In this document: positions 858-15,391 of the stretch, piece by piece
Position numbering within the stretch: position 1 is the stretch's first letter
Layout: the number at the start of each line of letters is the position of its first letter
Assembly: GCA_020536535.1 (NCBI GenBank)
Contig: JAHLWZ010000810.1
Location: 38,894 to 54,284 of the forward strand
Source: Pelomyxa schiedti
Taxonomy: Eukaryota; Protista; Evosea
Direction: 5' to 3'
DNA: 15,391 nt
Position numbers and translations under genes: made by a program
The notes under the pieces: generated by a model
Told to the model about the DNA's origin: nothing
Database searches by the model: none
Seen by the model: the letters and a program-made list of their open reading frames with translations, nothing else

Positions 858-1699
858 CTAGTGTCCAGAGGCGGGGGCGGAGACCAAGCCAGAGGCGGTG
901 TTGAACAAGTTAATTGGGCTGTTGCCATCGGTGATCATCAGTGACTTGAGTCCAAGGCCGTTGAGGAGCTTGGCCTGCATTTCTGGTCCGGCCTGTGCAA
1001 TAGCCCTGATTGTCTCTGGTCCAATGGCGGAAACTACCTCTCCGAACTTGGTGGTTTCGATTTCAGCAAGGTCGCGGGTGCGCTTCACCTCCAGCTGTGT
1101 GAGCTTCTCCTTGTGTGCAAGCTCCATTCCTTGTCGCTTCTTGAGCTCGTCAAGGGCTGCCTTTGCGGTAATGGTGGCAGAGTTTGCGGAGAGGGTTGCC
1201 TGCTTGACTGCGGCCTCGCCCTCGATGGTTGATGCAGCGGCAAGAGCTCGAGCCTCAGCTGTTGCCTGACCGGTGCTCTCCACGGTTGCGCTTTGTGCCT
1301 GGAGCTCAAGGAGTGACTTGCGGGCCCTCTCGGCCTCGGCCTCGTCGGCGAGCTTTTGTCTCTCAAGGCGGCCGCGGGCCTCCTGGTCAAGGCGCTCAGC
1401 CTCCTGGCGGGCTGTGGCCTCCTGGGACTTGGTGGTAATCTCAATAGCGAGTTGGACTGACTTCTGAAGGGAGTCGCGGGTGCGTTGGTCGACGGGCTCA
1501 ACAGACTGAATATCAATGTTGGTGACAACAAGGTTGTTGCTGCTGAAGACAAGTCGGTCATTGATTTCGCCGGTCTGTGTGTTGCGACCAAAAACGGACT
1601 CCTGAATGATATCTACGGAGTGCTTGTGGAAGGCATCGAAAGATGTAGAGGCAACAACTCCTCTGACGCGGGCACTGAGGGCCTTGCAAAGATCACCAA
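858..1699 (-). CDS. MVP: Major vault protein, exon 4 of 4. C-terminal shoulder, cap-helix and cap-ring region, ending at the TAG stop at 858-860.
   Basis: The minus-strand translation '...VGDLCKALSARVRGVVAS...[47 protein letters not shown]...' aligns with vertebrate MVP ([47 protein letters not shown]). The acceptor CGTAG lies at 1700-1701 and the exon enters in phase 1. Confidence 0.9.
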
Positions 1700-1745
1700 C
1701 TACGAGGTGTCAAAATAAAGAAAACCACACAAGAGAAAAACAAAC

Positions 1746-3089
1746 CGAAGTCAGGTGTGCTGAAGATGCGGCCAGCAGCCTCCTGATCGCTTTGGTCAAC
1801 CTCGAAATGCCAGTTATAGCTGAGCTTGAGAGCCAAACGGGCGTGATCAGCGGTTTCAACGGTGATCTGATCAGTCATGAAGTCGGGTCCAAGGAACAGG
1901 GAGATGGCGTGGATTTGGTTGGATTGTTTAGGAACACCACCGCTCATGTTAAGAGTTGTGAAGTGCTCATCTGGCTGGAGGAGGACAAGATCGGGTCCGA
2001 ATACAACACGTGATTTCTTCTTCTCATAGTCATACACTTGTACAGCAGCGCCGTGGGGTACACGGTAGCTGACAACGCGGGTTGGGTCGCGAGCCTTGGG
2101 AGATCCTGTCTTAATGTCGTTCTTGTCGCGAGAAGCATCAACAAGGAGCAACTTGTCGACTTCAGTGGGGAGAACCTTAGACCAGAGCTCCTCATTAGGG
2201 GCAAGCATGTATGAAGATCCAATGTGGGCGCGGATCTTGCCTGTGGTGATATCGCGTACGTAGATACCCTCGTTCTCGTCAAGAGGAATTGCTCTCCTCT
2301 TCTCGACTACCTCAACCTCTACTGGTGGGATGAAGTCTCGTGGGCCATAGAGCATCCACCTGTCTCCAGGGAGCTTCTTCTCTTCTGGAAGGGCAGAGCG
2401 GGCACGGAGAAGAAGGGCCTCCTCCTGAGCAAGCACGTACACATCCTGGATTCCATTCTCAAGCCTCTCACCTGGGTAGAGGAAGAAAGAAGCCTCGCCT
2501 CGGCGGAGTTCGCGGGCGCCGAACCTGGGCCTGCCGTCATGGCCAATTGGGTCGACAACAACGCAGAACTGTCGGTTGTTCAGGGTGGTGATTTTCACGA
2601 TTCCCTTGACTTGCTCATAAACGTCGGTGATGTAGGTCTCAGTATCTTGCATGGTGACAAGCCACTCCTCTCCAGCCTTGCGGACCTTGTTGAAGACATC
2701 AGAGAACGTGTTGTTGGCAACAAGGTGAAGGGCGGTAGTGGGAGTCAGAACAACGGCGCTGACAGTTCCAACGATTTCCTCATTGACATCAGGTAAGTAA
2801 GCACCGCTCTTGCGGACCAACCACTGCTCACCAGCGCATCTGTGCTGGGTGGTGCTATCAACGCAATCGAGTCTGGCGCGAAGCTTGAGGGCCTCATTCT
2901 CCTTGATGATTGTGCTGTTAACCTTCTCCACAACTGATTCCTCAACACGGGGAGTGTATGTGGAGGGTCCCTTGAACAGCCACTCGTCGCCAGAGGTTCG
3001 TTTGTGTCCTTCCTTGTCTTCGAAATCCCTCACGGCACGGATACGGAGTGCCTGATTGGCTTGAACGACAACCAAGGGTGTTGGCTTCT
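1746..3089 (-). CDS. MVP: Major vault protein, exon 3 of 4 (MVP repeat domains).
   Basis: A continuous 448-codon open frame, '...LVVVQANQALRIRAVRDFEDKEGHKRTSGDEWLFKGP...VVSYRVPHGAAVQVYDY...ITVETADHARLALKLSYNWHFEV...', is collinear with human MVP. The donor GTTTGT is at 1745-1744 (minus) and the acceptor TTTTAG at 3095-3090 (minus). Confidence 0.9.
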
Positions 3090-3145
3090 CTAAAACGCAG
3101 GATTAGTACTCGGAATTGGAATTAAAGGGAAAGAAGTGGGCATAC

Positions 3146-3322
3146 CCTTAAGAGACTCTCCAGGGAAGAGTGGGAATGGGTCCTGAGCGAAACGGATTTC
3201 CTCATCTCCATGTCTAATCTTGGGCATGCCAAACTGATCAAGGAGTGTGTTCCCCTTCTTGTCCTTCTCCACTGGGTTGGAGATCTTGCAGTAGTTGCGG
3301 GGAGGAACAGTAATCATAGCCT
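3146..3322 (-). CDS. MVP: Major vault protein, exon 2 of 4.
   Basis: The translation 'EAMITVPPRNYCKISNPVEKDKKGNTLLDQFGMPKIRHGDEEIRFAQDPFPLFPGESLK' corresponds to human 'MRMVTVPPRHYC...LAQDPFPLYPGEVLE'. It is flanked by the acceptor TTTCAG (3328-3323, minus) and the donor GTATGC (3145-3140, minus). The 56-nt downstream intron contains a TACTAAT branch-like motif. Confidence 0.85.
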
Positions 3323-3464
3323 CTGAAATTTAAATTAATAACCATTAAACCACAAGTATTTAAAAAGACACACACGACAAAAAACATCGCATTATTGAGT
3401 GTGTGTTGTAGTGGAAAAAACCCAATAACACGAAGGGAGAAAAACAAACAAACAAAAAGCGAAC

Positions 3465-3600
3465 CTGGGCCGAGGATGATGTTTTCATGGTCGCGGCGAG
3501 TGAAAGTTCGAGGACCGACAACAACAGTGGTAACGTTGGTGTTGTTATCAAAGACGTGGATGTAGTGGTTGGGCTTGATTCGAATGACTGACTCCGGCAT
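3465..3600 (-). CDS. MVP: Major vault protein, exon 1 of 4, with the start codon at 3600-3598.
   Basis: 'MPESVIRIKPNHYIHVFDNNTNVTTVVVGPRTFTRRDHENIILGP' matches the MVP N-terminus ([41 protein letters not shown]). The Kozak-like context is caaccATGc. The donor is GTTCGC at 3464. Intron 1 is 142 nt and A/C-rich. The exon phases make the four-exon total 2499 nt, which is 833 codons including the stop. Confidence 0.85.
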
Positions 3601-4043
3601 GGTTGAAACAAAACTTGACTTTTGGTTTGTTTTGGTTTTTCTTGTGTTTTTTTTTAAATTATGTTTTGGTTTTTTATTCGGCACAAAATAAAAAGTAGCT
3701 ACGCGGATCTAACGGCCAAAAAAAAAACCGAACGGAGGAAAAAAAAACAAACCAAGAATTGAAAGAGAAAAAAATAGGAATTCCTGAAAGCGAAAGGACT
3801 GGGCGTTGAATCAGTTGCTTTTTAATCCGGGGTTCTATCTTTCTATCCTCCGCGCCATTCTCCTCTCTGAGCATGGAAGCATCGCCTATTCCCAAGCCTC
3901 AATAGATACACAACAAGGTCTTTGTGAGCAGCTTCGAGACCCACACCACCAGAAAACACAAAATCCTTTCGCCGTGCCTGATTGTGTGCAATGCACTGCA
4001 TCTTTCACGAACGTTCTTCGTTGCCGTCCACCAACCGGCGAAC
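3601..4043. promoter_or_regulatory. Divergent intergenic and 5'-UTR region shared by MVP (minus) and the ROCO gene (plus). It is A/T-rich with long A tracts.
   Basis: The two genes sit head-to-head with their ATGs 443 bp apart (MVP at 3600, ROCO at 4044). The region contains tracts such as caaaaaaaaaaaccgaacggaggaaaaaaaaac. A 10-codon uORF (ATG 3873 to TAG 3905) is in frame with the ROCO ORF. No TATA element is obvious. Confidence 0.4.
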
Positions 4044-6051
4044 ATGCAACCTGCCAACGACGACCCCCCTTCTCCCTCGCCCCAGCCCACGGAATCCGCA
4101 GACACCCGCCCCTCCGCCTCTGCCTCTCCCCCTCCTTCACACCCATCCCACCACCACCGGGACCAACACCGGCACAGCTGCAGCCCAGAGAGGCAGCACG
4201 AAGGGTGCCCGGCAGACAGCCCCCCGCGGTGCGGCCTGCCCCCCCCGGGGGCCATCCGCGCCCGCGCCTCCACCTCCGCGTCGGTGCTGGACAAGCGGAA
4301 GACCCTGCAGCGCTCCAACGGCGTCCTCAACCTCCGCGGCATGGGCTGCGACGACACCTGCCCGCTGCCCCCGTCCTCGATCCGCGCCTCCTGCTCCCTG
4401 CTGCCGCTGCCCTCGTCCTCGTGCCCGCCCTCGTGCGCCTCCCACGAGGGGATGCCCTGCACCTGCCGCTGCTCCCTCACGACGACTACTACTACTGCTA
4501 CTACTACCTCGGCTTCCTCGTCGTCGCCGAAGGGGGTGGTGCTGCGGAGCCTGGGTAAAAACACTGCTGGGGCACCTACCAGCAAGTCGATGGACTCGGT
4601 GGTTTTGAACCCCACTGGGGGCGTCAAGTGCACTGTGAGGGGCACGGACAACGATCGCAACAACTCGCTCTCTCAGTCTCCAAATGCCACCAGGAAAAAA
4701 TCGACTTCCAAAAGACCTTCCCCATCTCCACCACCAAAATCCACTCCTCTGAAAACAATGGTAACTGTGAGCCAAATGGCCCAGGCTACTACTACGGGGA
4801 TCCCGCAACCTACTGAACAGATAGTACCAACTGGCGATTCAGGTGATTCAGCTTCTAGTAACACCCCTGCGAACAGCAGAACCAAAACGTCTCCAAGGAT
4901 TGCACTTTTTCCCACCATCAAAATACACTGCCTATGGAAACATGGCAGCCATACTACCGTGTCACAACTGTCAAGATACTCCCGTTGCATCGCGGAGGCG
5001 CTAATTCCGGAACTGCAGAGTGATGAACTTGACCGAGCAAGGGCATTAAAGAAGTTGCAGGAACAAAGCCCCAAGATTATCAAAGTGTTTGCCAACGTCT
5101 TCGAAGCTGCTTCTTCCGAGTCACATTCGTCGTTTGACACCTTTGGAGATTTTCACCCAATGGCATCCCTGGCACAGGCTTCCAACATTAGTGACCTAGT
5201 TTCTCCTGGTCTAAATTATACCACCCCCTCAGAGTCTCCCATGTCAGGCGACTCAACCCCAGAGTCAAGAGGTGCCAGCCTTCAAAGTGGAATGACTGAT
5301 GAAACGGCACTTATATTTATGCTTTCTGTGAGTGATAGCTCCATTCCTTATGTTTGGGTACATGCTGCCCATGCAGCTGTTGATGCTCTATGGTGCATTT
5401 GCTTAAGTCCGCGGTTCGCAAAACTTGTGCATCAAAATGTTGTCGTATTTGCATGCCGGCTATTCTTCCACTCTTTGGCATCGTCTTTGACCTGGTCTTC
5501 GCTTCCTCAGCTGCCTCCGTCATGTCTTTTGGAGTCGACTGCCTCAGCGGCGTTGTTGATGTCTTCCTCATCAAGCTCCCTATTATCACCGCACGTACCC
5601 TCTCTATCGCCCACTCCAGACACCAAAGCCACAGGATCTGGTGTGGCTCCACCAGTGGAGGAACCGGAAGCTCCACTAAATCCTCTTCGCAATGCTTCAG
5701 TTCGAAAAGATACCTGTGGTATTCTTTGGCGCTTGACAGAGATTCTAACAAATCGCATTGATGACTCCGGACTTCCTGAGGGGGGTGGACTTCAACAGCG
5801 CATGCAAATAAATAATGTTGCCCTACAGTCAGCAGTATCACGCCTTCTGAAGGCATTCCCTGAACACCAGCGCATCCAATATCACAGTTGTAAGTTGATG
5901 ACAGTTATGATAAAGCGGTATTCATTTTGCTGGGAATTCGTCAAACTTGATGGGCTCAAAGTATTGAGTAGTGCTGCCCGACTCTTAATGAGAACTGCTG
6001 AGGCAATTCCCGATACTCTTCAGGAGCTAAGAGATCATATTATTAACGTTG
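4044..6051 (+). CDS. ROCO-family kinase (LRR-Roc-COR-kinase), exon 1. An N-terminal Pro/Ser/Cys/Thr-rich low-complexity segment (GC-rich, 4047-4560) is followed by an ARM/HEAT-like helical region. The start is the first in-frame ATG at 4044 (upstream 3924 is GTG).
   Basis: The open frame is 2.0 kb long. Its C-terminal part, 'SIPYVWVHAAHAAVDALWCICLSPRFAKLVHQNVVVFACRLF...LKVLSSAARLLMRTAEAIPDTLQELRDHIINV', looks like armadillo-type repeats as found N-terminal in LRRK-type proteins. The codons are C-ending, like the MVP sense strand. The donor GTACTT is at 6052 and the exon ends in phase 1. Confidence 0.7.
4047..4560 (+). other. GC/CpG-rich compositional island (about 70% GC) inside ROCO exon 1. 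It has no stops in any of the six frames and includes a poly-Thr ACT/ACG run at 4483-4512.
   Basis: There is an abrupt composition shift relative to the flanking sequence, which is about 45% GC. In the ROCO frame the codons are predominantly NCC/NTC, consistent with the sense-strand bias seen in MVP. Confidence 0.6.
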
Positions 6052-6106
6052 GTACTTGCCCTCTGCGGACTGGATGCTCTTATTCTTCGTGTGTATATTC
6101 CTCCAG

Positions 6107-6601
6107 CAATGCATACTTATCTTTTTAGTGGTTCAGGGGAGACCACATGCGTTTCTGTTCTATATAATGCCTTGTTAGCAGAACAGTACCAAGAGCTTGT
6201 GTTAACTGAAAATATCACTTCACAGGCCTTGGCTCAATTTTTGCCTTCCCTGTACCCTTTCTCCCGAGTCGTTATGAGTAATTTGGGGCTGGACTCTGTG
6301 CCTATCGAGATAGGCAATCTTTCCAATCTCGTTCAAGTTGATCTGAGTCACAATCAACTTGGTTATGTCCCTTGTTCTTTTGCTAAGCTGGAGAAACTGG
6401 AACTTCTCAACGTTGAATACAATAAGATTGACCGGTTATTCCCAGGGTTTGGGCTCCACCCAACAATGAAACTGATGTGCCAGCATAATCCTCTCAAGGG
6501 AATACCCTTCATGGCCAGAAACTCTCCAAAAAACTTGAAGACTTATTTGAAAGACTTAAATGAAGACATGCACTACTGGAATCGCGTTCGGATACTCGTA
6601 G
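6107..6601 (+). CDS. ROCO kinase, exon 2: leucine-rich repeats plus the start of the Roc GTPase domain.
   Basis: 'MSNLGLDSVPIEIGNLSNLVQVDLSHNQLGYVPCSFAKLEKLELLNVEYNKIDRL' has the LxxLxLxxN LRR consensus. The exon ends '...WNRVRILV|' immediately before the P-loop. The acceptor is tcctccag at 6106 and the donor GTATGA at 6602. Confidence 0.8.
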
Positions 6602-6649
6602 GTATGATAATAGACTCAAATATATAAAAAGAGTAAATCTTTGTTCCAG

Positions 6650-6822
6650 TTGGAGAAGAATCAGCTGGCAAAACTTCTCTCATTCGCCGTTTGCAGTCAC
6701 GCAAATTCAAGTCCAACTCTCTGGCTACAAATGGAATTGAAGTAGCATCGAAGCAAGTAAGTATTGGTGAATCTACACTGGGACCTTCAGTTAAATTTAT
6801 GTGCTGGGACTTTGGTGGACAG
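6650..6822 (+). CDS. ROCO kinase, exon 3: Roc GTPase G1 (P-loop) to G3.
   Basis: 'VGEESAGKTSLIRRLQSRKF...KFMCWDFGGQ' carries the GxxxxGK[ST] P-loop and the DxxGQ switch II motif, as in the LRRK2 Roc domain (LNVWDFAGREEF). The acceptor is ttgttccag at 6649 and the donor GTAGTT at 6823. Confidence 0.8.
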
Positions 6823-6864
6823 GTAGTTCGCCTCTTACCCATAAATTATTCTAAAAGTCCTAAG

Positions 6865-6975
6865 GTGTGCTTCTATCCAACTCACCAGTTCTTCCTATCA
6901 CCCAAAGCCCTTTACCTAGTGACCTTTAGTCTGGAAAAGTTTCAGCTCTCCACTATTGATTACTGGCTTCAGCAG
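6865..6975 (+). CDS. ROCO kinase, exon 4 (Roc domain). The 5' boundary is uncertain.
   Basis: 'VCFYPTHQFFLSPKALYLVTFSLEKFQLSTIDYWLQQ' aligns with LRRK2 'EEFYSTHPHFMTQRALYLAVYDLSK'. The preceding 42-nt intron (6823-6864) is in frame and has no stop, so retention cannot be excluded. The donor GTGTGA is at 6976. Confidence 0.5.
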
Positions 6976-7016
6976 GTGTGATTAGAAGTTTTGTTGTCTG
7001 TTCTGAGATGCACAAG

Positions 7017-7163
7017 ATTGAAGCAATTTCCTCCAAAGATCAAACAGAGCCTCCAGTAATTCTTTGCGGGACGCACTCTGACGTTTTTCCTTCCCTAGAG
7101 GAAGCCACTATACAAATTCAAAGTATGCTTTCCAGATACAAGCAAAGGTTTCACAACATTAAG
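7017..7163 (+). CDS. ROCO kinase, exon 5 (Roc G4 region).
   Basis: 'IEAISSKDQTEPPVILCGTHSDV...' corresponds to LRRK2 'ARASSSPVILVGTHLDV'. The acceptor at 7016 gives a 41-nt intron, although a 32-nt alternative exists. The donor GTATAT is at 7164. Confidence 0.65.
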
Positions 7164-7207
7164 GTATATTGTGACTTTATTGTCTTCCAATATTCATCTG
7201 AGTCCAG

Positions 7208-7291
7208 GGAGCAATTGCACTGAGCAATAGCACTGGCATTGGCATCAATTCACTTAAGACGCTTCTCCTAAAAGTCGCTAAGGATACGAAG
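7208..7291 (+). CDS. ROCO kinase, exon 6 (end of Roc).
   Basis: 'GAIALSNSTGIGINSLKTLLLKVAKDTK' is in phase 0 at both ends. The flanking introns are 44 nt (7164-7207) and 43 nt (7292-7334). Confidence 0.65.
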
Positions 7292-7334
7292 GTAGTCCTT
7301 TGTCGAATACATTCTTTATTCATAAGTGGAATAG

Positions 7335-7510
7335 CTCACGAATATCGAAATTCCCACATCTTACTACTGCCTATCAAAACGGGTGATCTCGTTGCAAAAG
7401 GCATCCCCTGGAATGCGGGTAATGCCCTGGATGAGCTTTTATCAGCTCGCAAACCAGGTGAACTTATTTTGCCCTGTAAGTGTCCAACTTGCAGCGGAAT
7501 TTCTGTGCAG
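7335..7510 (+). CDS. ROCO kinase, exon 7 (COR-A).
   Basis: 'LTNIEIPTSYYCLSKRVISLQKA...QVNLFCPVSVQLAAEFLCS' aligns with LRRK2 COR 'GQLIPDCYVELEKIILSERKN...ENELPHAVHFLNES'. Internal GT sites (GTGAAC, GTAAGT) are read through. The donor GTAGAA at 7511 is required because an in-frame TAG follows. Confidence 0.6.
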
Positions 7511-7552
7511 GTAGAACTAGCTTCCTTTTATGCTTTCCTTTCCTAATCCCAG

Positions 7553-7619
7553 CAGTATGGGTTATTTGTTACACTACAACCACGGTTTACTTGCGGATGT
7601 GGTGTTTATGGACATGCAG
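7553..7619 (+). CDS. ROCO kinase, exon 8 (COR). The acceptor is either 7552 or 7555.
   Basis: 'SMGYLLHYNHGLLADVVFMDMQ' aligns with LRRK2 'SGVLLHFQDPALQLSDLYFVEPK'. The donor GTATTC is at 7620. Confidence 0.6.
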
Positions 7620-7661
7620 GTATTCGAACTCCTTCGTAATTTTTTCTGACATCTCCTATAG

Positions 7662-7751
7662 TGGGTTGCTAACGTTATGGCGACACTGATTTCGTTTACC
7701 CACAATTTCGGTAAAAGAGATGGGCTTCTTAGACCAGAGGACCTTAAACAG
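7662..7751 (+). CDS. ROCO kinase, exon 9 (COR).
   Basis: 'WVANVMATLISFTHNFGKRDGLLRPEDLKQ' aligns with LRRK2 'WLCKIMAQILT...GIISRRDVEKFL'. The preceding 42-nt intron has a CTGAC branch-like motif. Confidence 0.65.
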
Positions 7752-7797
7752 GTTCCCTATTGTTATCAATGCTCTTTAATTAAATCATGTGCCTAAG

Positions 7798-8033
7798 ATT
7801 CTGAAAGGAAGCACCACAAATTCACTGGAATTCATAGAGCTTCTTGTAAAATTCAACATTGCTCATGTTATTTCTAGCAATGACTCACTTCTCATCCCGT
7901 GCCTCCTGTCTGATGCCTGCCCCAATATGGAGTGGCCTCCACAATCTCCAAATGATAGCCTTACTTCACCTATGGTGATAAGTGCTTGTTCTAGGTACTA
8001 CAGATTATATGAATTTCGGTTTCTGCCTCTTGG
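7798..8033 (+). CDS. ROCO kinase, exon 10 (COR).
   Basis: 'ILKGSTTNSLEFIELLVKFNIAHVISSNDSLLIPCLLSD...RYYRLYEFRFLPLG' aligns with LRRK2 'YFKLLEKFQIALPIGEEYLLVPSSLSD...IIIRLYEMPYFPMG'. The donor GTGTGC is at 8034. Confidence 0.75.
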
Positions 8034-8083
8034 GTGTGCCAGCTGATGTTATAGAGGTTTCCTTACATTTTTCCATGAAATAG

Positions 8084-8301
8084 CTTTATGGGTAGATTGA
8101 TTACACAAATACTCCAGAGCCCAAATATATCCATGCTGAATTGCTGGAAGGATGGGCTTATTATTACAGATAAACTCCATCCCCAGTTTTGTCTGTTTAA
8201 GTATGACCCTGAACTGTGCACTGTGTCTCTTGATGTTGCTCTGTTTGGCTCTCTTGAGGACCCCAAGGCATCTTTGCTGCGAATATGTATTGAAATGATA
8301 G
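8084..8301 (+). CDS. ROCO kinase, exon 11 (COR).
   Basis: 'FMGRLITQILQSPNISMLNCWKDGLIITDKLHPQFCLFKYDPELCTVSLDVALFGS...' aligns with LRRK2 'FWSRLINRLLEISPYMLSGRE...'. The preceding intron is 50 nt. Confidence 0.75.
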
Positions 8302-8342
8302 GTGGGGATGATGTAAATCCTTGTACCCTCACAATAAAATAG

Positions 8343-8506
8343 AAGCCCTAGCGGAATGTTCATACCCAAGATTATTTTATTGTCTTCAACGAAGAGTTCC
8401 CTGCAACCACTGTAAAGCTCTCAGCACTGCTTCAGTTTTCAAGTATGAAGATATTGTATCACTGTATGTTTCTGGGCAAACAGACGTGAAATGTAATGGT
8501 GACTCT
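8343..8506 (+). CDS. ROCO kinase, exon 12 (COR-B). The 3' boundary is ambiguous.
   Basis: 'EALAECSYPRLFYCLQRRVPCNHCKAL...' resembles LRRK2 'DSLMEEWFPGLLEI'. A phase-0 donor is needed to reach the acceptor at 8553. Candidates are 8455, 8467, 8485, 8506, 8512 and 8515. I chose 8506 because it gives the modal 47-nt intron. Confidence 0.35.
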
Positions 8507-8553
8507 GTTACGGTTGTACCTATCAAATGCTACTGTTTACTGACACACCTAAG

Positions 8554-8649
8554 TTGGAAGACTTAGCACCGGACATAACATTCACTGATATACCAGTCCT
8601 AAAGGATGTACGAATTGTTAGAAAACTGGGTGAAGGAGGCTTTGGGGCT
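8554..8649 (+). CDS. ROCO kinase, exon 13: the COR-kinase junction and the kinase glycine-rich loop.
   Basis: 'LEDLAPDITFTDIPVLKDVRIVRKLGEGGFGA' carries the GxGxFG motif. The donor GTACTT at 8650 is the same hexamer as the intron 1 donor. Confidence 0.75.
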
Positions 8650-8693
8650 GTACTTCCATCTTTCCTCCAATTCAATCTTAGAATCAGTATTAG

Positions 8694-8738
8694 GTTTACC
8701 AAGGAATGCTAAATACGAGCAGCTGGGTGGCAGTAAAA
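8694..8738 (+). CDS. ROCO kinase, exon 14 (kinase subdomains I-II; VAVK catalytic lysine).
   Basis: 'VYQGMLNTSSWVAVK'. Donor options at 8739, 8742 and 8745 all preserve the frame, and 8739 (GTAGTT) gives a 42-nt intron. Confidence 0.6.
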
Positions 8739-8780
8739 GTAGTTGTGCTATGTTTCGACACAAATAACAAATGACTACAG

Positions 8781-8918
8781 GAGTTACTCGGTTCTGGAGA
8801 GGACACAGTACAGAAATTTACGCAGTTCCAGCGGGAAACTGCAATAATGAACTTCTTACATCATCCAAACCTCGTCTCACTTCTTGGAATAACTCTGACG
8901 CCTCCTCGTATGGTTTTA
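8781..8918 (+). CDS. ROCO kinase, exon 15 (kinase subdomains III-V).
   Basis: 'ELLGSGEDTVQKFTQFQRETAIMNFLHHPNLVSLLGITLTPPRMVL'. From memory, Dictyostelium Roco4 reads '[48 protein letters not shown]'. The donor GTATGT is at 8919. Confidence 0.75.
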
Positions 8919-8961
8919 GTATGTACCGCCAGAATAGCCGGAAAGTACTAAGTTCCCACAG

Positions 8962-9124
8962 GAATTCATACCTGGAGGAGACCTTTCACATTTCATGCAC
9001 CCACAAGCAGAGAAGACCATCTCACAAGAAGAATTCGACTGGGTATACAGATTGAACATCGCTATTGACATAGCTCGGGGGATGGAATACCTTCAAAAAA
9101 TAAAACCTCCCGTGATACATCGAG
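8962..9124 (+). CDS. ROCO kinase, exon 16 (kinase subdomains V-VIa).
   Basis: 'EFIPGGDLSHFMH...IAIDIARGMEYLQKIKPPVIHR'. The donor GTAAAT is at 9125. Confidence 0.8.
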
Positions 9125-9172
9125 GTAAATATCTATTACATTCCACTCTTTGCACAGTTCTCAGTGCACTAG

Positions 9173-9237
9173 ATTTACGACCTGCGAATATTTTCCTCAC
9201 TGGAACCACTGAAGGACCAATTTATGCGAAAGTTGCG
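9173..9237 (+). CDS. ROCO kinase, exon 17 (catalytic loop HRDLRPANIFL).
   Basis: The acceptor at 9172 restores 'HR|DLRPANIFLTGTTEGPIYAKVA'. The alternative acceptor at 9157 would destroy the HRD motif. The donor GTATGT is at 9238. Confidence 0.75.
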
Positions 9238-9291
9238 GTATGTGTTTTTGATAGCATTTGGTTCTTTTTTACCAATTCAATTCCACCTTAG

Positions 9292-9298
9292 GATTTTG
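9292..9298 (+). CDS. ROCO kinase, exon 18: a 7-nt micro-exon GATTTTG encoding the DFG motif.
   Basis: This is the only splice solution that keeps both DFG and the downstream 'LSRRVSEMNDSLPNWEWLAPE' in frame. Read-through from either side hits a stop. The acceptor ttccaccttag is at 9291 and the donor GTACCT at 9299. The flanking introns are 54 and 47 nt. Confidence 0.5.
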
Positions 9299-9345
9299 GT
9301 ACCTCGTTGTCTATTCCCGCCTCCCATAACTTCTTACTTTCCAAG

Positions 9346-9456
9346 GTCTCAGCAGAAGGGTATCCGAGATGAATGACTCTCTTCCAAATTGGGAATGGCT
9401 GGCTCCTGAAGTTTATTCAACCTCCTCGGTCACTAAGAAATATGACTGCAGCACAG
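9346..9456 (+). CDS. ROCO kinase, exon 19 (activation segment and APE motif).
   Basis: '(G)LSRRVSEMNDSLPNWEWLAPEVYSTSSVTKKYDCST'. The donor GTTAAT is at 9457. Confidence 0.7.
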
Positions 9457-9503
9457 GTTAATAAGTGGTTAACGGCAAATCAAATTGAACGAACTTCCTT
9501 CAG

Positions 9504-9652
9504 ATGTATATAGCTTTGGGCTTATATTGTATGAAATGGAGGCCTTGCGGATTCCCTATTCGGAATTTCGTGAAGACCCAAGATACAACACAACAGCAGG
9601 CACAAATAAAGCTGGGAAGCCTATTCTAAGATTCCAACTAATTAAATTCAAA
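9504..9652 (+). CDS. ROCO kinase, exon 20 (kinase subdomains IX-X).
   Basis: 'DVYSFGLILYEMEALRIPYSEFREDPRYNTTAGTNKAGKPILRFQLIKFK'. The donor GTACAC is at 9653 and the following intron is 47 nt. Confidence 0.7.
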
Positions 9653-9699
9653 GTACACAAACGCAATTTTTCCCCTTTTAAAATAATACACCCAATTAG

Positions 9700-9882
9700 A
9701 ACGCAATTGAGGAAGGACTGCGGCCCACTCTCCTAGAATCCCCTGAAATACCCCTTGGTTACAATGAATTGATGAAGCAATGCTGGGATAATGACCCCAC
9801 CAATAGACCCACCTTCTCCCAGATTTACGAGGACCTTACAAGGATATATGCAAATAACGACTGCAGTAGCCAACAGCACTAA
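9700..9882 (+). CDS. ROCO kinase, exon 21 (kinase subdomain XI, C-terminus, TAA stop at 9880-9882).
   Basis: 'NAIEEGLRPTLLESPEIPLGYNELMKQCWDNDPTNRPTFSQIYEDLTRIYANNDCSSQQH*'. From memory, Roco4 reads '[39 protein letters not shown]'. An AATAAA-like signal (aataataaa) sits about 30 nt downstream. The summed exon phases give a 4926-nt CDS of about 1641 aa. Confidence 0.75.
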   Translation, partial: NAIEEGLRPTLLESPEIPLGYNELMKQCWDNDPTNRPTFSQIYEDLTRIYANNDCSSQQH

Positions 9883-10233
9883 TTCTAATTCAGTATTGTA
9901 CAAAGAAGAAAGAAATAATAAATTGTATATTGTTTTCTATCTCTGGTTGTTTGGTTTGTATGCACATTGAAAATGTGTATGACTGCACCACTGAAGTTCA
10001 CCGCCTTAACTTAACAGGCTTATGCTTTGGCACCAGAGGGAGGTGAATTACCATAGAACCCTTCGAAATCTTCAAAAAAAAAAGTGTTACAAAGTGTGGT
10101 GCGTGCCTCAACGTTATAAACATATACACGTTATACCGTAAAAATAGGGAAGATACGGTAGTTTTATCAGAAACGGAATTCCCATCTTTGACGTAGTTTT
10201 TGTTTTCGTTTTGCTTGCTGGCAGGCTTCTTGG

Positions 10234-10860
10234 TCATTGAAAGGCAGCAACCAGTAGTATCATGCTTCTCTTCACTTGATCCTGAGAGTTATTCAATATT
10301 GTTAGTGCAGTTCGGGAACTTTCTATACCATTGTGTTGAGAGACAGACTGGGCGTCGGTGGATAAGGTGAAGGCAACTTGTAGTTTCGGTTTCAGCTTTT
10401 GCTTCACCTTTGCTTTCGTACGCGAGTTTGGCGACACAACGGGGTCCTCTGCATTGCCCACCTCCATCGCTTCGTCGGTCGACCGAGCAGTCGTTGCTGG
10501 CGCCGATTCCGCCCATCTGGCCCCTGTGGATGCCGTTTGGCCCCCCAATGGCTGCGGATCGCTCGTCTCCTCATCCTGTCCGTTGTCGCAGGGCAGCGCA
10601 CTCGCAGAAGAAGGTGCGCTGGAACCAGCCGCACGCGCCACAGCGTGCGGGCTTTGGATTCCGCCATCAGCGCTTGAGTTCTGCCCCACGCGCGCGCGCT
10701 TCCGTGCCGTTTCTCGCGCGAAATCCGACGCGTCGCCATGGGAAGAGGGCGACGACGCGGGAGAAAACGCAGGCGAGCGGGCGTGGGCTGCGGACCTGGA
10801 GTGCTGTTGCTGGCGGCGGCGTGGGAGAGCCGTGTGGAGGCTGAGCTGCACGATTTGTTC
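10234..10860 (-). other. Unresolved gene-like segment. The open frame encodes a low-complexity Ser/Ala/Arg-rich peptide ending at the TGA stop at 10234. Both strand and frame are uncertain.
   Basis: The ORF stays open across the GC-rich block 10400-10860, where every frame is open, and across the moderate-GC tail 10240-10400. A strong 3' splice-site motif ttccttgtgtattgcag sits at 10873-10857 (minus). No upstream exon with an in-frame ATG was found and there is no homology to anchor the frame. The plus-strand frame 10358..10882 shows C-ending codon bias similar to genuine genes here. Confidence 0.25.
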
Positions 10861-10956
10861 TGCAATACACAAGGAAATGTGAGAACGTGAAGGTTGGCAA
10901 GTGACTTGTGTGTGAGTGTGTTTTGTTTTGGTGTCAGGGAGAGACAACACAAACAC

Positions 10957-11349
10957 CCAAGTCCATGTGTGCCGTTCGCAAGGTTTTCTTTTTACGAGAT
11001 CTTCGGGTAAGACTACTTACTGTAAGCTCTCAGTGCAACTCACTGTCACTGCTTGGAGGACTGCTCCCCCAAGACCGTGGATCGTGATGTAGGATTATGG
11101 CTGACGGAGGAGCCGGAGTTTTAGGGAGTTACACACATCTTGATATCTGAATCATTCTGCGACTTCGAAGTCGCACTATCAACTGCATCTTCCTCGTTTG
11201 GGGAAAAAAGAGATAGGAAGTTTCTGGTGGCCGAAACCGCAACGGAGTTTTCCTTGGCGTTTTTATATCGATTTTGTTTTATGATGAAAGAAAATAAATA
11301 AATAAACAAACAGACACTCGTTCAATCGCTTATCCCACGCGCCAATAAG
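10957..11349. promoter_or_regulatory. Intergenic and upstream region of the SCP-type phosphatase gene. It may be divergent with the unresolved minus-strand locus.
   Basis: The region is A/T-rich with (aaat)n-like runs at 11290-11310 immediately upstream of the ATG at 11350. Confidence 0.3.
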
Positions 11350-11380
11350 ATGGTGTTGACTGCAGCTGTGTGTTCTCAAA
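11350..11380 (+). CDS. FCP1-homology (SCP/NIF-type CTD small) phosphatase, exon 1, with the ATG at 11350.
   Basis: The context is 'ataagATGG'. Exon 1 encodes MVLTAAVCSQ, followed by a consensus GTGAGT donor at 11381. The 41-nt intron (11381-11421) splices in phase 1 into the only frame carrying the phosphatase domain. That frame has no in-frame ATG before codon 'FMNM' at about 11576. Confidence 0.55.
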
Positions 11381-11421
11381 GTGAGTGCATTCTGCCATAT
11401 CGTACTGTTCATTCTTAACAG

Positions 11422-11705
11422 TAACGATAGGCACGCCACTCAAACAAGAGCAAGAGCCAATAGTAGTGCCAGAGAAACCCAAAGAGAAACCAGCTGCAAA
11501 AAAGTCAGGGATTTCCGCATTGCTATGCAGTGTCTTCTCTGTTCTTTTCAATCCTCTGATTCCGAGGTATGGTGCATTCATGAATATGCTGGCTCCAAAT
11601 CAACCTCATTCTAGACCTCTTCTCGAGGAACCCCATCCAAGTCATGTTGGGAAGAAGACTTTGGTCTTGGATTTAGATGACACCCTTGTCCACAGTTCAT
11701 TTCAA
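11422..11705 (+). CDS. SCP/NIF-type phosphatase, exon 2: a hydrophobic segment plus the DxDxT catalytic motif.
   Basis: '...KKSGISALLCSVFSVLFNPLIP...GKKTLVLDLDDTLVHSSFQ' carries the DLDxTLVHSS signature of the FCP1/SCP family. The donor GTGAGT is at 11706. Confidence 0.8.
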
Positions 11706-11757
11706 GTGAGTCACTCACAATTTATTGTGTTGTGTAAACCTGACAACTGATGCACAG

Positions 11758-11907
11758 CCGGTTGAACACTGTGACATGACGTTCCCAATTGAACTCGAAG
11801 GGAAACCCTTCACTGTTTATTTGAACAAAAGGCCAGGCTTGGATGAGTTCTTGCGTTACGCGACTCAGAATTTTGAAGTAGTAGTTTTCACTGCTAGTCT
11901 CAAACGA
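11758..11907 (+). CDS. SCP/NIF-type phosphatase, exon 3.
   Basis: 'PVEHCDMTFPIELEGKPFTVYLNKRPGLDEFLRYATQNFEVVVFTASLKR' aligns with human SCP1 '[50 protein letters not shown]'. The introns are 52 and 49 nt and both have GTGAGT donors. Confidence 0.85.
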
Positions 11908-11956
11908 GTGAGTTTCTGCTTTGTAATTTCACACATTTACTTACTTGATTTTCCAG

Positions 11957-12460
11957 TACGCGGATCCAGTTATAAACGCGATTGATCCGGACCACACAAT
12001 TCCCCACAGACTCTACAGAGGGTCATGCACAATGATACAGGGGCACTACATAAAGGACTTGAGCAGATTGGGCAGAGAGCTCCGGAACTGCATCATTGTT
12101 GACAATTCCCCAGTGTCTTACGCCCTTCATGCCCAGCACGCCATTCCAATCTCCACCTATGTAAATAGTCCCCATGATAGGTGCTTGGATTCGCTCCGCT
12201 TGATCCTTGATCAAGTCAACTCACACCCCGATGTGTGCGCGACCCTCAAGTGGGTTTTAAAGAGCCCTCTTGCCGCCGATCACATGGCGCAAGCAGAGCT
12301 CTCAGCGCGAGCCACTCTCGCGCCCCCCAAAGCTACAACAATCACCATCGCATCAACAACGACGTCATCTTCAAGAGCCACTGCGCCGCCAAACGCGCCA
12401 ACAATGACTACTGAATGCACATCAAAAACGCTAGTGCTCACAGCCAGTGGTCAGAGTTGA
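11957..12460 (+). CDS. SCP/NIF-type phosphatase, exon 4 (TGA stop at 12458-12460).
   Basis: '[69 protein letters not shown]' aligns with SCP1 '[69 protein letters not shown]'. It has a Thr/Ser/Ala-rich C-terminal tail. An AATAAA lies at about 12692. The total CDS is 969 nt, or 322 aa. Confidence 0.85.
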   Translation, partial: [167 protein letters not shown]

Positions 12461-12817
12461 ATCTGCCAGATCCGCCGTTTACGGTGGTCTCTACGATGTG
12501 GGCCGGCTAAGTCACGTGCCCCTCCCGCAGGGATCTCACCCTGTTGTATTTATTTTTGTTTTGACATAAAAAAGACAAAAGCAACTATTTTGCCCAAACT
12601 CTTTTCCTATTTCTTTTTCTCGGTGCAACTGCTTAGCTGGTCTCCTTTGGCATCATTTCCCTGCAGACCCTTATGTCACGATCTGGGTAGGAATAAAGCA
12701 ATCTAGTAAATAAACAAACCACACAAGGGACCGCAAGGGGGATCAGACATAAGAAGGAAATCAACAAAAAGGAAAACAAAGAAAAAAAAAAGTACGCAGA
12801 CCAACGTAACAACAAGA

Positions 12818-13212
12818 ATGGACGCGACACAAGCCAAAACTACTGAAGTCGTAACGGCACCTATTGCTACGCAACAACCTTCGGCCGCAGAAAGTTGTTC
12901 CACAAAGGTACTCGAAGTTAGCCCTCCAAGTGAAACAGACAAACAAAATTGTACCAATGGAGAAGCAGTAGTGCCAGAAAAAAAAGAACTAGAACCAAAA
13001 AATAAAGACGCAACCGAAGCGCCTCAAACACAGCAAGCTGAACAAAACACACAAATACCAACACAACAGCAACAAGAAGCAGCCGTGCAACCAGGTGATG
13101 GGAAGCCAGTCCCACCAAACGATAACCGTACCTTGTACTTTGGAGGCCTCGCGTGGCAAACATCGGAGTCTGACTTGGCTCATCACATTGAAGATACATG
13201 CGGTTGTCAAGT
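12818..13212 (+). CDS. Two-RRM RNA-binding protein, exon 1: a Q/E/T-rich N-terminus and the first half of RRM1 (RNP-2 'LYFGGL').
   Basis: The ATG at 12818 has the context acaagaATGG and follows an A-rich leader. The exon ends in phase 2 at a GTGAGT donor (13213). A 44-nt intron follows. Confidence 0.75.
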
Positions 13213-13256
13213 GTGAGTCACTCCTTGCTTCATTATTTTCAATTAATTTTGTCTAG

Positions 13257-14055
13257 GTTGGCAGTTGACATAAAAACCAAAGGAAGACAATCTTTAGGTT
13301 TTGGGTTTGTGGAAGTAGATACCCCTGAATCTGCATCAGTAGTAGTCAGTAAGCTGCACAATCAATCATTCCAGGGCCGTGTGATATCGGTGGATTTTGC
13401 TCGCCCTCGTAACTTCGTTCCGTCATCTTCTAGCTCGACATCGTCTTCAACAAACTCGACGTCAACATCCTCTCCTGTGCTATCCAGACCACCAATGCGA
13501 ACGGGCTTTCGCACCCAATGGGGGAATTCATACGGATTTCCAATGCCCAGAATGTGGCCAAGATTCCCGCGGGTGAGATATCCTTTTGTGCAAGCACCTA
13601 TTATGCCGAGATATACCCCACAACCAGCATTGATAGCTCAACCAAAGATGTCACTACCACCCCCTCAGCCACAGCTTCCCCTTCCCCCACCACCTCTAAT
13701 TCAAACCCACACTGTTTCCCAACCACTCATTTCTTCTCAGCCATCTGCTCCCCAGTCCCTTCTACCACAACAAGATGGAAGATATTCTATGCCACAGCGC
13801 CGTGGTCAATCTGTATCAGCCCAGCCTTTGCTCCCTACAACCCCGAGCCAACCTGCATTCCAGACCCCGGTATACAATGCCGCACCTCCTGCAATGCAAT
13901 CTACCACCCAATCTCAACAAACTAGACAAGGTGCTCCAATTCAACAGAACTTCCAGCGAGAAAGGTTTATTTTATTTGCTGCCCATCCCCTTTATCTCAA
14001 TAGTGATAGACAATTCTTTACTCAGCGGAGTTACAACGGACAAAGATCACCCAAG
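13257..14055 (+). CDS. RRM protein, exon 2: the RNP-1 motif of RRM1 plus a long Ser/Pro/Gln-rich linker.
   Basis: '(V)LAVDIKTKGRQSLGFGFVEVDTPESASVVVSKLHNQSFQGRVISVDFARPRN' has the RNP-1 octamer LGFGFVEV. The open frame runs to the GTAACA donor at 14056. A 39-nt in-frame GT..AG segment near 13960 cannot be ruled in or out as an intron. Confidence 0.65.
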
Positions 14056-14108
14056 GTAACAAATGCAATTTTGGTTACGGAGCCTAACTGCGAATTTAAA
14101 TAAAATAG

Positions 14109-14524
14109 TCTAGAAATATGTTGGCAATCAACTACCCTGCACCAGCAGCACAAATGATCAATCAGAACCCCCGAACCAACACTGGCATTTCCTACCAACA
14201 ACAGTACAACCAAGCACCGCAGATGTTGCAGTCACCACAGTGGCCACAGGTAGGCCAACCGCAACAAATGATGCAACCACAAATGATGCAGCCGCAAATG
14301 ATGCAACCACAACAAATGATGCAGGCACCTCAGATGATGCAACCACAAATGATGCAACCCCAGATGATGCAGCCTCAACAAATGATGCCGCAGTCCCAGA
14401 TGATGCAACCACAACAAATGATGCAACCACAGCAAATGATGCAGCCACAACAAATGATGCAGCAACCCCAGATGATGCAACCGCAGCAAATGATGCAGCC
14501 ACAGATGAATTATCCTCCAAGAAG
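14109..14524 (+). CDS. RRM protein, exon 3: a Gln/Pro/Met-rich tandem-repeat domain.
   Basis: The 53-nt intron 14056-14108 shifts the frame into 'SRNMLAINYPAPAAQMINQN...QPQQMMQPQMMQPQMMQPQQMM...QPQMNYPPR'. This is the only frame that continues in phase into RRM2. The donor GTTCTT is at 14525. Confidence 0.6.
14256..14507 (+). repeat. Imperfect 15/18-nt coding tandem repeat of about 15 units: CAACC(A/G)CA(A/G)(CAA)ATGATG.
   Basis: Seen directly. Units such as caaccacaaatgatg, cagccgcaaatgatg, caaccacaacaaatgatg and caaccccagatgatg vary mostly at synonymous positions, giving (Q)PQ(Q)MM peptide repeats. It produces spurious long ORFs in five other frames. Confidence 0.85.
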
Positions 14525-14567
14525 GTTCTTCCTCTTTGGAGGTTGCCAAATTACTGACTCTCTTCAG

Positions 14568-14667
14568 GGTTGAATCCCGCACTACCCTCTATATCGGAAA
14601 CCTTCCTGCTGTTGTTACCGATGCCACACTTAGGGAGATTTTTTCAGAGATGCCCGTGAAGGTTAAG
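14568..14667 (+). CDS. RRM protein, exon 4: the first half of RRM2 (RNP-2 'LYIGNL').
   Basis: '(R)VESRTTLYIGNLPAVVTDATLREIFSEMPVKVK'. The donor GTATGA is at 14668 and a 48-nt intron follows. Confidence 0.7.
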
Positions 14668-14715
14668 GTATGACGTACTTATGTTCCACTTCTCTTCTCA
14701 TAGTTCTTTTTACAG

Positions 14716-14863
14716 AACTGTAATGTCGCTCAAACGAACGATGGTCGCAGCAAAGGATTTGGATTTGTAGAATTCGCGTCTGAGCGCGATTTCCAGACTG
14801 CCTTAGAAACACTTGACAAGATCGAGATTGATGGCAATGTACTCATCCTCAAGCCTGCTCGTT
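14716..14863 (+). CDS. RRM protein, exon 5: RNP-1 of RRM2.
   Basis: 'NCNVAQTNDGRSKGFGFVEFASERDFQTALETLDKIEIDGNVLILKPAR' carries the canonical KGFGFVEF motif. A GTGAGT donor is at 14864. Confidence 0.7.
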
Positions 14864-14907
14864 GTGAGTTCCCTCTCGTTCCCCTTTCCCTTCTAACGTA
14901 ACACAAG

Positions 14908-14924
14908 TGCCTGTTCGTATGTGA
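14908..14924 (+). CDS. RRM protein, putative terminal micro-exon ('LPVRM', stop at 14922-14924). The alternative is read-through to the TAA at 14899-14901.
   Basis: A 44-nt intron (14864-14907) would use the GTGAGT donor and a CTAAC branch-like motif. Without splicing, the ORF ends 12 codons later. Either way the gene terminates near 14900-14925, and an AATAAG/AT-rich signal follows. Confidence 0.35.
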
Positions 14925-15391
14925 TCAGACTCTGGATAGGAAAAATAAGAATAATATAATTATTTGTTTTTCTCCTATGATGATTGGTGACTAGGGCATT
15001 GCCGTACAATGCACGCTCTTAATTTCCGGCTGCTTTTGCATGCAATTAACTACGATGATGGGAGACGGCGCTGGCGCAAAAGCCGAGGAGCAAGGTGTAC
15101 AAGTTGGTGCATTGGAGGCATTTTCGGTGTGCTGGCGGCCTGAGGATATTTTGGAGACTGAGGGAGGAGGCGTTTTGTGTCAGTACTCCCCTGCGTCGGC
15201 TGATGGTCCGTGTTTGACACACATCGTTTTCAGTTTGGCATATTAAATCGGGAGTTTGCAGGCTCTCGATGCGTTGGGGTTGTTGCTGTGTTGCGGCCAG
15301 AGACGTGTGATCAATCCTCTGCATTAAAGAGTGCGGAACGGGGACCGCAGATCTCAAAAGGGTTTGTGTGCCCTTCACCAGATCTGTGTTA

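Follow-up and report, generated by a model that had tools for sequence, protein, structure and literature searches.

Four Intron-Rich Genes in a Pelomyxa schiedti Contig

The exon-intron structure of a 15,391 nt stretch of Pelomyxa schiedti DNA (contig JAHLWZ010000810.1, positions 38,894 to 54,284; hereafter the window) was analyzed. The window carries four recognizable genes. The major vault protein gene (MVP) lies on the minus strand (858–3600, coding sequence plus stop). The plus strand carries a ROCO (LRR-Roc-COR-kinase) gene (4758–9882 as deposited), a small phosphatase gene of the NIF/CTD type (11350–12460), and a gene whose product has two RRMs and a long Q/P/M-rich repeat (12818–14924). 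A total of 33 candidate GT..AG introns were placed in these genes, 31 of them firm and two uncertain. Very probably these are spliceosomal introns of the ordinary U2 type (GT-AG) in nuclear genes, and their sizes of about 39–56 nt lie near the workable minimum.

The MVP model has four exons and three introns and encodes 832 residues, identical to KAH3757025.1, with full Vault and MVP_shoulder Pfam domains. The best match of its large exon was a Mastigella eilhardi transcript from EukProt (80% identity), a first pointer to the Archamoebae. For ROCO, the NCBI protein P0122 (1409 residues, "leucine-rich repeat-containing protein [Pelomyxa schiedti]") was threaded onto the DNA and matched at 100% identity over all residues, giving 21 exons and 20 introns with full-length Roc, COR-A, COR-B, and kinase Pfam domains. 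Because P0122 threads exactly and the MVP model is identical to the deposited protein, the window is assigned on sequence identity to the nuclear DNA of P. schiedti (Amoebozoa, Archamoebae, Pelomyxidae), a free-living anaerobic amoeba. The original prediction, made from the letters alone, had held that a compact-genome intron regime limits the plausible source; the protist option that it allowed agrees with an archamoeba.

The G+C content of the window (47.7%) fits the published genome figure of 46.5%; its intron density is about 8 per gene, and the published one 7.4. Genome-wide, 148,348–149,016 introns were reported, 7.4 per gene, of which 98.4% were GT-AG and 1.6% GC-AG (PMC8887013). The deposited models are the product of Augustus followed by PASA and EVM and drew on the authors' RNA-seq (PMC8887013). 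Of our 33 introns, 23 are already implied by deposited proteins.

Intron Lengths Fall in a Narrow Range

In the window, 32 of the 33 introns were 39–56 nt long (mean 45.6, median 44.5, standard deviation 4.2). The sole long one was the first MVP intron, with 142 nt. All 33 had the GT..AG ends expected of U2-type introns. The length distribution was narrow and unimodal and lay near its lower bound, as in a minimal-intron architecture, for the window at least.

These numbers bear on several earlier claims. The lengths originally predicted for MVP (56 and 46 nt, plus 142 nt), for the phosphatase (41, 52, and 49 nt), and for the RRM gene (44, 53, 43, 48, and 44 nt) were all recovered exactly, as was the claim that every intron is GT..AG. 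The claim that nearly all introns fall in 41–58 nt was right about the tightness of the range, which we place at 39–56 nt. The predicted total of 34 introns implied 23 in ROCO, and threading of the deposited protein found 20 there. A 98 nt ROCO intron had also been proposed; the gene contains 16 GT..AG pairs of that length, none of which coincides with the 20 introns given by P0122, the longest of which is 54 nt.

In MVP (minus strand), intron 1 (3323–3464, 142 nt, GTTCGC..CAG) was placed by the deposited protein and by a junction, GPE|AMIT, that is ungapped against P0121. Intron 2 (3090–3145, 56 nt, GTATGC..TAG) carries TACTAAT near its 3′ end, and its junction SLK|EKP is ungapped against P0001 and P0121. 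Intron 3 (1700–1745, 46 nt, GTTTGT..TAG) joins PDF|VGD, ungapped in all homologs.

Two further observations concern MVP. A high-scoring 44 nt interval, GTTTGT..TTAG (3709–3752, minus strand), is found some 110 nt 5′ of the MVP start codon and may be an intron of the 5′ untranslated region. A second P. schiedti MVP, P0243 (KAH3761641.1, 833 residues), belongs to the same 90% cluster and lies on a separate contig of 29 kb, as a recent paralog or an uncollapsed allele.

The 20 ROCO introns were 40–54 nt long, and all were GT..AG. Intron 1 (6089–6128, 40 nt, GTGTGT..TAG) was placed by threading in a poorly conserved region; there the deposited choice was the best against the paralog P0123, with a score of 149 versus 115–119 for longer alternatives. 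Intron 2 (6602–6649, 48 nt, GTATGA..CAG) has an ungapped junction in the P-loop region and would bring in a stop if retained. Threading, an ungapped junction, and stop analysis supported intron 4 (6976–7016, 41 nt, GTGTGA..AAG), intron 5 (7164–7207, 44 nt, GTATAT..CAG), intron 6 (7292–7334, 43 nt, GTAGTC..TAG), intron 7 (7511–7555, 45 nt, GTAGAA..CAG), intron 8 (7620–7661, 42 nt, GTATTC..TAG, with a branch-like CTGAC), and intron 9 (7752–7797, 46 nt, GTTCCC..AAG). The same lines of evidence applied to intron 11 (8302–8342, 41 nt, GTGGGG..TAG), intron 14 (8739–8780, 42 nt, GTAGTT..CAG), intron 19 (9457–9503, 47 nt, GTTAAT..CAG), and intron 20 (9653–9699, 47 nt, GTACAC..TAG).

Threading and an ungapped junction placed intron 10 (8034–8083, 50 nt, GTGTGC..TAG, at FLPLG|FMGRL), intron 12 (8513–8553, 41 nt, GTTGTA..AAG, with TACTGAC), intron 13 (8650–8693, 44 nt, GTACTT..TAG, at GGFGA|VYQG), and intron 15 (8919–8961, 43 nt, GTATGT..CAG, with TACTAAG). 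Introns 17 (9238–9291, 54 nt, GTATGT..TAG) and 18 (9299–9345, 47 nt, GTACCT..AAG) were placed in the same way. They flank a 7 nt micro-exon, GATTTTG (9292–9298), which encodes the DFG motif of the kinase. The micro-exon is present in the deposited protein, the sequence KVADFGLSRRV is conserved in homologs, and the kinase would have no DFG if the exon were left out. The remaining two, intron 3 (6823–6864, 42 nt, GTAGTT..AAG) and intron 16 (9125–9172, 48 nt, GTAAAT..TAG), have no in-frame stop. The first joins DFGGQ|VCFYPTHQFF, ungapped in six homologs, and the second splits the HRD motif (VIHR|DLRPAN), ungapped in all homologs.

The ROCO coding region may extend beyond the deposited model. Upstream of the deposited start ATG (4758), a patch of 70% G+C (4001–4757, plus strand) is open in all six frames. 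Its part from 4044 to 4757 is in frame with ROCO and showed codon periodicity (chi-square 37.6, p = 1e-6), with a GC3 of 0.77 versus 0.42 downstream. Judged from sequence, the deposited model may miss 238 N-terminal codons, starting at ATG 4044 as the start used in the original prediction implies.

In the phosphatase gene, the first intron (11381–11421, 41 nt, GTGAGT..CAG) was placed from the reading frame, since without it the one ATG available upstream would not be connected with the open N-terminal exon. The two introns inside the NIF domain (11706–11757, 52 nt, at VHSSFQ|PVEH, and 11908–11956, 49 nt, at FTASLKR|YADP; both GTGAGT..CAG) are ungapped against eight homologs. In the RRM gene, retention of the first intron (13213–13256, 44 nt, GTGAGT..TAG) would bring in a stop 1 nt past the donor. 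The next two (14056–14108, 53 nt, GTAACA..TAG, with CCTAAC; 14525–14567, 43 nt, GTTCTT..CAG, with TACTGAC) were placed by our own model and stop analysis. An intron inside RRM2 (14668–14715, 48 nt, GTATGA..CAG) leaves RRM_1 full length across the junction. The last (14864–14907, 44 nt, GTGAGT..AAG, with TCTAAC) was placed by motifs alone and touches only the last five codons.

The two uncertain candidates are a 48 nt interval in the phosphatase gene (11567–11614, GTATGG..TAG, no stop, score 9.6) and a 39 nt interval in the RRM gene (13965–14003, GTTTAT..TAG, a multiple of three with no stop, score 19.4).

Homologs Fix Most Splice Junctions

The positions of most introns could be fixed by comparison with homologs. 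In all, 24 junctions (ROCO 2–20, three in MVP, and two in the phosphatase) sit in ungapped homolog alignments, and some of the homologs are transcript-derived (Mastigella eilhardi P0001, Physarum P0127, and the EukProt Trinity open reading frame P0129). ROCO junctions 2–20 show no gap in alignments with the paralog, with a Dictyostelium Roco protein, and with the Physarum and EukProt sequences; for the three MVP junctions this holds with the Mastigella transcript and with a JGI sequence of 84% identity. In an ungapped alignment the intron length is the genomic distance minus the coding bases, and it is therefore independent of any length model. The Pfam domains were intact across the junctions: Roc 1–119 of 119, kinase 2–258 of 258, NIF 1–159 of 160, and RRM_1 1–69 of 70. 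Removal was tested indirectly, through these alignments and domains and through the spliced ROCO and MVP models, which equal the deposited proteins. The exons join in frame.

The uniform length could in principle be an artefact of prediction, if the length model of Augustus and our hand-built models both favored short GT..AG pairs and the true introns differed. The deposited models are indeed the output of an automated pipeline, at any junction the frame stays open with several different GT..AG choices, and ROCO junction 6089–6128 and the last RRM intron have no strong independent support. But the 24 ungapped junctions fix lengths independently of any length prior, the Pfam domains are full length, and the same procedure recovered the 142 nt intron. 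We consider such an artefact very improbable. Listing the GT..AG pairs that preserve the reading frame ab initio was also tried and was far too ambiguous for placing introns.

Of the 33 introns, 29 would introduce a premature stop if left in the mRNA. The lengths of 10 of the 33 were multiples of three versus 11 expected, four of these being stop-free, in a small sample whose discovery is biased to introns that break the reading frame. The four stop-free intervals (6823–6864, 9125–9172, 11567–11614, and 13965–14003) might include retained coding insertions or alternatively spliced segments, rather than constitutive introns, and the last two of them lie in unconserved regions. Keeping 6823–6864 or 9125–9172, however, would add 14–16 residues to G3 (DFGGQ) or HRD. 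ROCO introns 3 and 16 must be removed, because they interrupt motifs that are ungapped in all homologs. The interval 13965–14003, for its part, scores like the best introns. We consider it rather unlikely, though a fair possibility, that some of the four are not constitutive introns.

Could the intervals be something other than U2-type introns, namely an introner-like repeat family, U12-type introns, or somatically removed DNA? They are compact and uniform, and about 90 minor introns were reported genome-wide in P. schiedti (PMC10639083). Against this, the highest similarity score between any two introns was 12, versus a mean shuffled maximum of 13.7, and there was no RTATCC donor and no TCCTTRAY branch site. 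The ends are GT..AG and not TA, and the assembly and the deposited annotation treat the intervals as introns. This explanation is scarcely credible. A U12-type identity was also rejected for individual introns, none of which had an RTATCCTT donor or a TCCTTRAY branch site near the 3′ end, and so was a repeat-derived or introner-like family, since pairwise local scores among the introns were not above shuffled controls.

Splice Signals Are Weak and Heterogeneous

The splice signals of the 31 firm introns were tabulated. The donors comprised 24 different hexamers; GTGAGT was the commonest, with five occurrences, and GTATGA, GTAGTT, and GTATGT had two apiece. Beyond the invariant GT, the donors held only about 2 bits of information. 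Position −2 was A in 61% of them and position −1 was G in 68%, C was absent from +3, and G made up 52% at +5 and T 55% at +6. The acceptors were 13 TAG, 12 CAG, and 6 AAG, with G depleted upstream. Pyrimidine runs were short, the longest averaging 5.3 in the last 20 nt. A strict CTRAY motif occurred in 8 of the 31 introns, and 8 of its 10 occurrences lay 8–15 nt from the 3′ splice site. The strict motif was about twice as frequent as expected from composition-shuffled sequences (p about 0.04), and looser motifs were not significant. The wide variation of donor hexamers, the short pyrimidine runs of the acceptors, and the CTRAY or TACTAAT-like motifs near the 3′ end of several introns had all been noted in the original prediction and were borne out here.

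Introns also differed from exons in composition (38% T and 16% G versus 24% T and 22% G). When scored against CAG|GTAAGT, true donors matched at a mean of 5.4 of 9 positions versus 3.65 for 420 exonic GT sites. The matches in the exonic and intronic parts of the donor were anticorrelated (r = −0.47, permutation p = 0.004). At the level of sequence, this is a classic sign that total base-pairing to U1 may matter.

Length and Weak Signals Together Recover Most Introns

The original prediction proposed that intron length, not motif strength, defines the splice. Donor strength alone indeed does not discriminate: 28 exonic GT sites had at least 6 of 9 donor matches, versus 16 true donors at that level. 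The claim that exonic GTAAGT sites are ignored was also upheld for the best exonic donor, CAA|GTAAGT, except that it lies at 6757 and not at 6756. Its nearby AGs end 34 and 66 nt from its G, and none falls at 39–56 nt. Moreover, the first AG at least 39 nt from the true donor was the real acceptor in 29 of 32 introns.

However, the stronger form of this proposal, in which any GT with an AG about 40–56 nt away is spliced and motifs are irrelevant, fared poorly. It agrees with the high diversity of donor hexamers, with the unused strong exonic donors, the strongest of which has no AG at the right spacing, and with the first-AG rule. But the four pre-mRNAs contain 626 GT..AG pairs of 39–56 nt for 32 introns, so that about 4 more bits are needed, and 401 of these pairs lie wholly in conserved coding exons. 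Length is not the sole definer of the splice, because length plus GT/AG leaves these 626 candidates. The donor positions −2, −1, +3, +5, and +6 and the acceptor position −3 are biased, the donor positions compensate each other, and a score of motifs plus composition puts true introns near the top. It is highly unlikely that length alone defines these introns.

That score was a log-odds model of the donor (−3 to +6), the acceptor (−6 to +2), and the interior composition, with a bonus for CTRAY, and it was evaluated by leave-one-out. In 25 of 30 cases the true intron had the top score among the overlapping candidates. The 401 pairs lying wholly within conserved coding exons served as decoys; at most 5 of them scored above the true intron in 19 of 30 cases, and at most 20 in 28 of 30. 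The mean difference between true introns and decoys was about 7 bits for interior composition, about 5 for the donor, and about 3.5 for the acceptor. We take this to mean that the signal is distributed thinly among several weak features together with a narrow window of lengths, none of them dominant.

Some exonic decoys, such as 6865–6919, outscored a third of the true introns. The earlier warning that ab initio annotation is error-prone here is justified, because conserved coding segments can score that high, and two candidates could not be decided. Two intron-like intervals in conserved exons of the plus strand, 7458–7510 (53 nt) and 6865–6919 (55 nt), each abut a real intron. Both score on a par with many true introns, and if cryptic splicing occurs at a low level, these are its likeliest sites.

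Other Features of the Window

The phosphatase model matched Pfam NIF over 1–159 of 160 positions (E = 1e-54), and the RRM model matched RRM_1 twice. Exact look-ups of three phosphatase and two RRM candidate models in a collection of 15 billion protein sequences gave no match; MVP and ROCO of the same contig are in the collection. A homolog search with a chimeric phosphatase-plus-RRM query returned only phosphatase homologs and a P. schiedti paralog of 52% identity. The two genes may be missing from the deposited annotation, or modeled very differently there. In the RRM gene, a long and imperfect tandem repeat (14240–14500, plus strand) codes for units of (P)QQMMQP.

Between ROCO and the phosphatase, a patch of 61% G+C holds an open frame of 260 codons on the minus strand (10237–11016) with modest codon periodicity (p = 0.003). 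It has no Pfam match, its first ATG comes only at about codon 185, and several further frames are likewise open. Positions 1–25 consist of 18 G, one C, and 6 G, a poly-G stretch that resembles an artefact of sequencing or assembly at a contig end rather than biology. Rfam and tRNA scans of the window found no noncoding RNA or tRNA genes.

Discussion

The introns of these four genes combine a narrow range of short lengths with weak splice signals. We infer that each of them would be recognized as a unit, that is, by intron definition. The 5′ splice site would be read by limited base-pairing, in which the exonic A at −2 and G at −1 make up for weak positions in the intron, and the reverse. The branch site used would lie about 8–15 nt from the 3′ end, which places it some 30 nt from the 5′ end, and the acceptor would be the first AG past a minimum distance. 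What marks an intron would be a donor with about 2 bits in addition to GT, an acceptor biased to YAG, an interior rich in U and poor in G, an occasional CTRAY, and a narrow length window. Both the first-AG rule and the tolerated 7 nt micro-exon are consistent with intron definition.

Several points weigh against this account. Splicing of each intron was deduced from the open reading frame, homology, and deposited models. The phosphatase and RRM gene models were built in this analysis and have no database counterpart, and the candidates 11567–11614 and 13965–14003 are undecidable from sequence and homology. The 39 nt threshold of the first-AG rule was derived from the same introns, and the scoring model was trained on 30–31 introns of the same window. 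The composition differences may reflect a lack of coding constraint and not a signal read by the spliceosome. Finally, cryptic introns in exons (at least 8 bits) numbered 13 versus 21.3 in synonymous-codon shuffles, a non-significant trend (P = 0.07).

Genomes with minimal introns are well known, with a mode of about 47 nt in C. elegans, about 60 in Drosophila, and about 25 in Paramecium, and S. pombe is a further example. Such introns are recognized across the intron, with the information shared by weak sites and composition. The window resembles these genomes in its narrow lengths just above a lower bound, its weak polypyrimidine tracts, the sharing of information between weak sites and composition, and the tolerance of micro-exons. 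It differs from them in belonging to the Archamoebae and in combining a mode of about 44–45 nt with about 7–8 introns per gene. The tiny introns of Paramecium are reportedly depleted in stop-free lengths that are multiples of three, as an effect of translational surveillance; no sign of such depletion was seen in the window, where the sample is small (10 of 33).

Intron-rich lineages reportedly have heterogeneous 5′ splice sites, and intron-poor ones homogeneous sites. The window fits this rule without contradiction, with a donor of AG|GTRNGT and about 2 bits beyond GT. P. schiedti is the most intron-dense of three archamoebae and has a weak, heterogeneous donor in the window, as the rule predicts. 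The same relation, a weak and heterogeneous 5′ splice site in intron-rich lineages and a strict one in intron-poor lineages, has been described elsewhere (bioRxiv 10.1101/2022.06.08.495308).

The two other archamoebae provide a direct comparison. Entamoeba is intron-poor; its donor is a near-invariant GUUUGU(U) (about 88–90% of introns), its branch position is fixed, and its U1 has co-evolved (bioRxiv 10.1101/2022.06.08.495308). It shares with the window short GT-AG introns and a branch-like YTRAY motif near the 3′ splice site. However, the GTTTGT donor of the Entamoeba type was found in only one of the 31 firm introns here (MVP intron 3), among 24 different hexamers, and the position of CTRAY varies over 8–15 nt in contrast to the fixed branch of Entamoeba. 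Mastigamoeba balamuthi prefers a GUGCGC donor, with a matching change in U1 (bioRxiv 10.1101/2022.06.08.495308). Like P. schiedti, it is a free-living archamoeba, intron-rich compared with Entamoeba and with similar proportions of GT-AG and GC-AG introns, but its introns are half as dense (3.7 per gene) and its genome has a G+C content of 60.7%. No donor in the window was GTGCGC.

The pattern is thus the known style of intron-rich genomes, with short introns and weak 5′ splice sites, and it reveals no new mechanism or element. What is modestly new is the very tight length distribution around 45 nt, which does not seem to have been described before in P. schiedti; intron lengths are given neither in the text nor in Table S1 of the genome paper, and none were found in the other literature searched. 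Genome-wide, P. schiedti may pair one of the highest intron densities of any protist (7.4 per gene) with a near-fixed length of about 45 nt, one of the weakest donor consensuses, and choice of the first AG beyond a minimum distance as acceptor, a possibility that we put forward tentatively and at somewhat less than even chances.

In practice, the exon-intron structure here cannot be read from donor motifs, and gene models need transcript or homology support. The introns of the window supply a further case of the known association of dense introns with weak 5′ splice sites and a minimal size, and they present the Archamoebae as a clade with three very different regimes of splicing signals. If the genome-wide pattern holds, P. 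schiedti would stand in sharp contrast to its relatives Entamoeba, with a strict GUUUGU, and Mastigamoeba, with GUGCGC, each with a co-evolved U1. The three archamoebae would then form a compact natural series for the co-evolution of splice-signal strength, intron number, and intron length.

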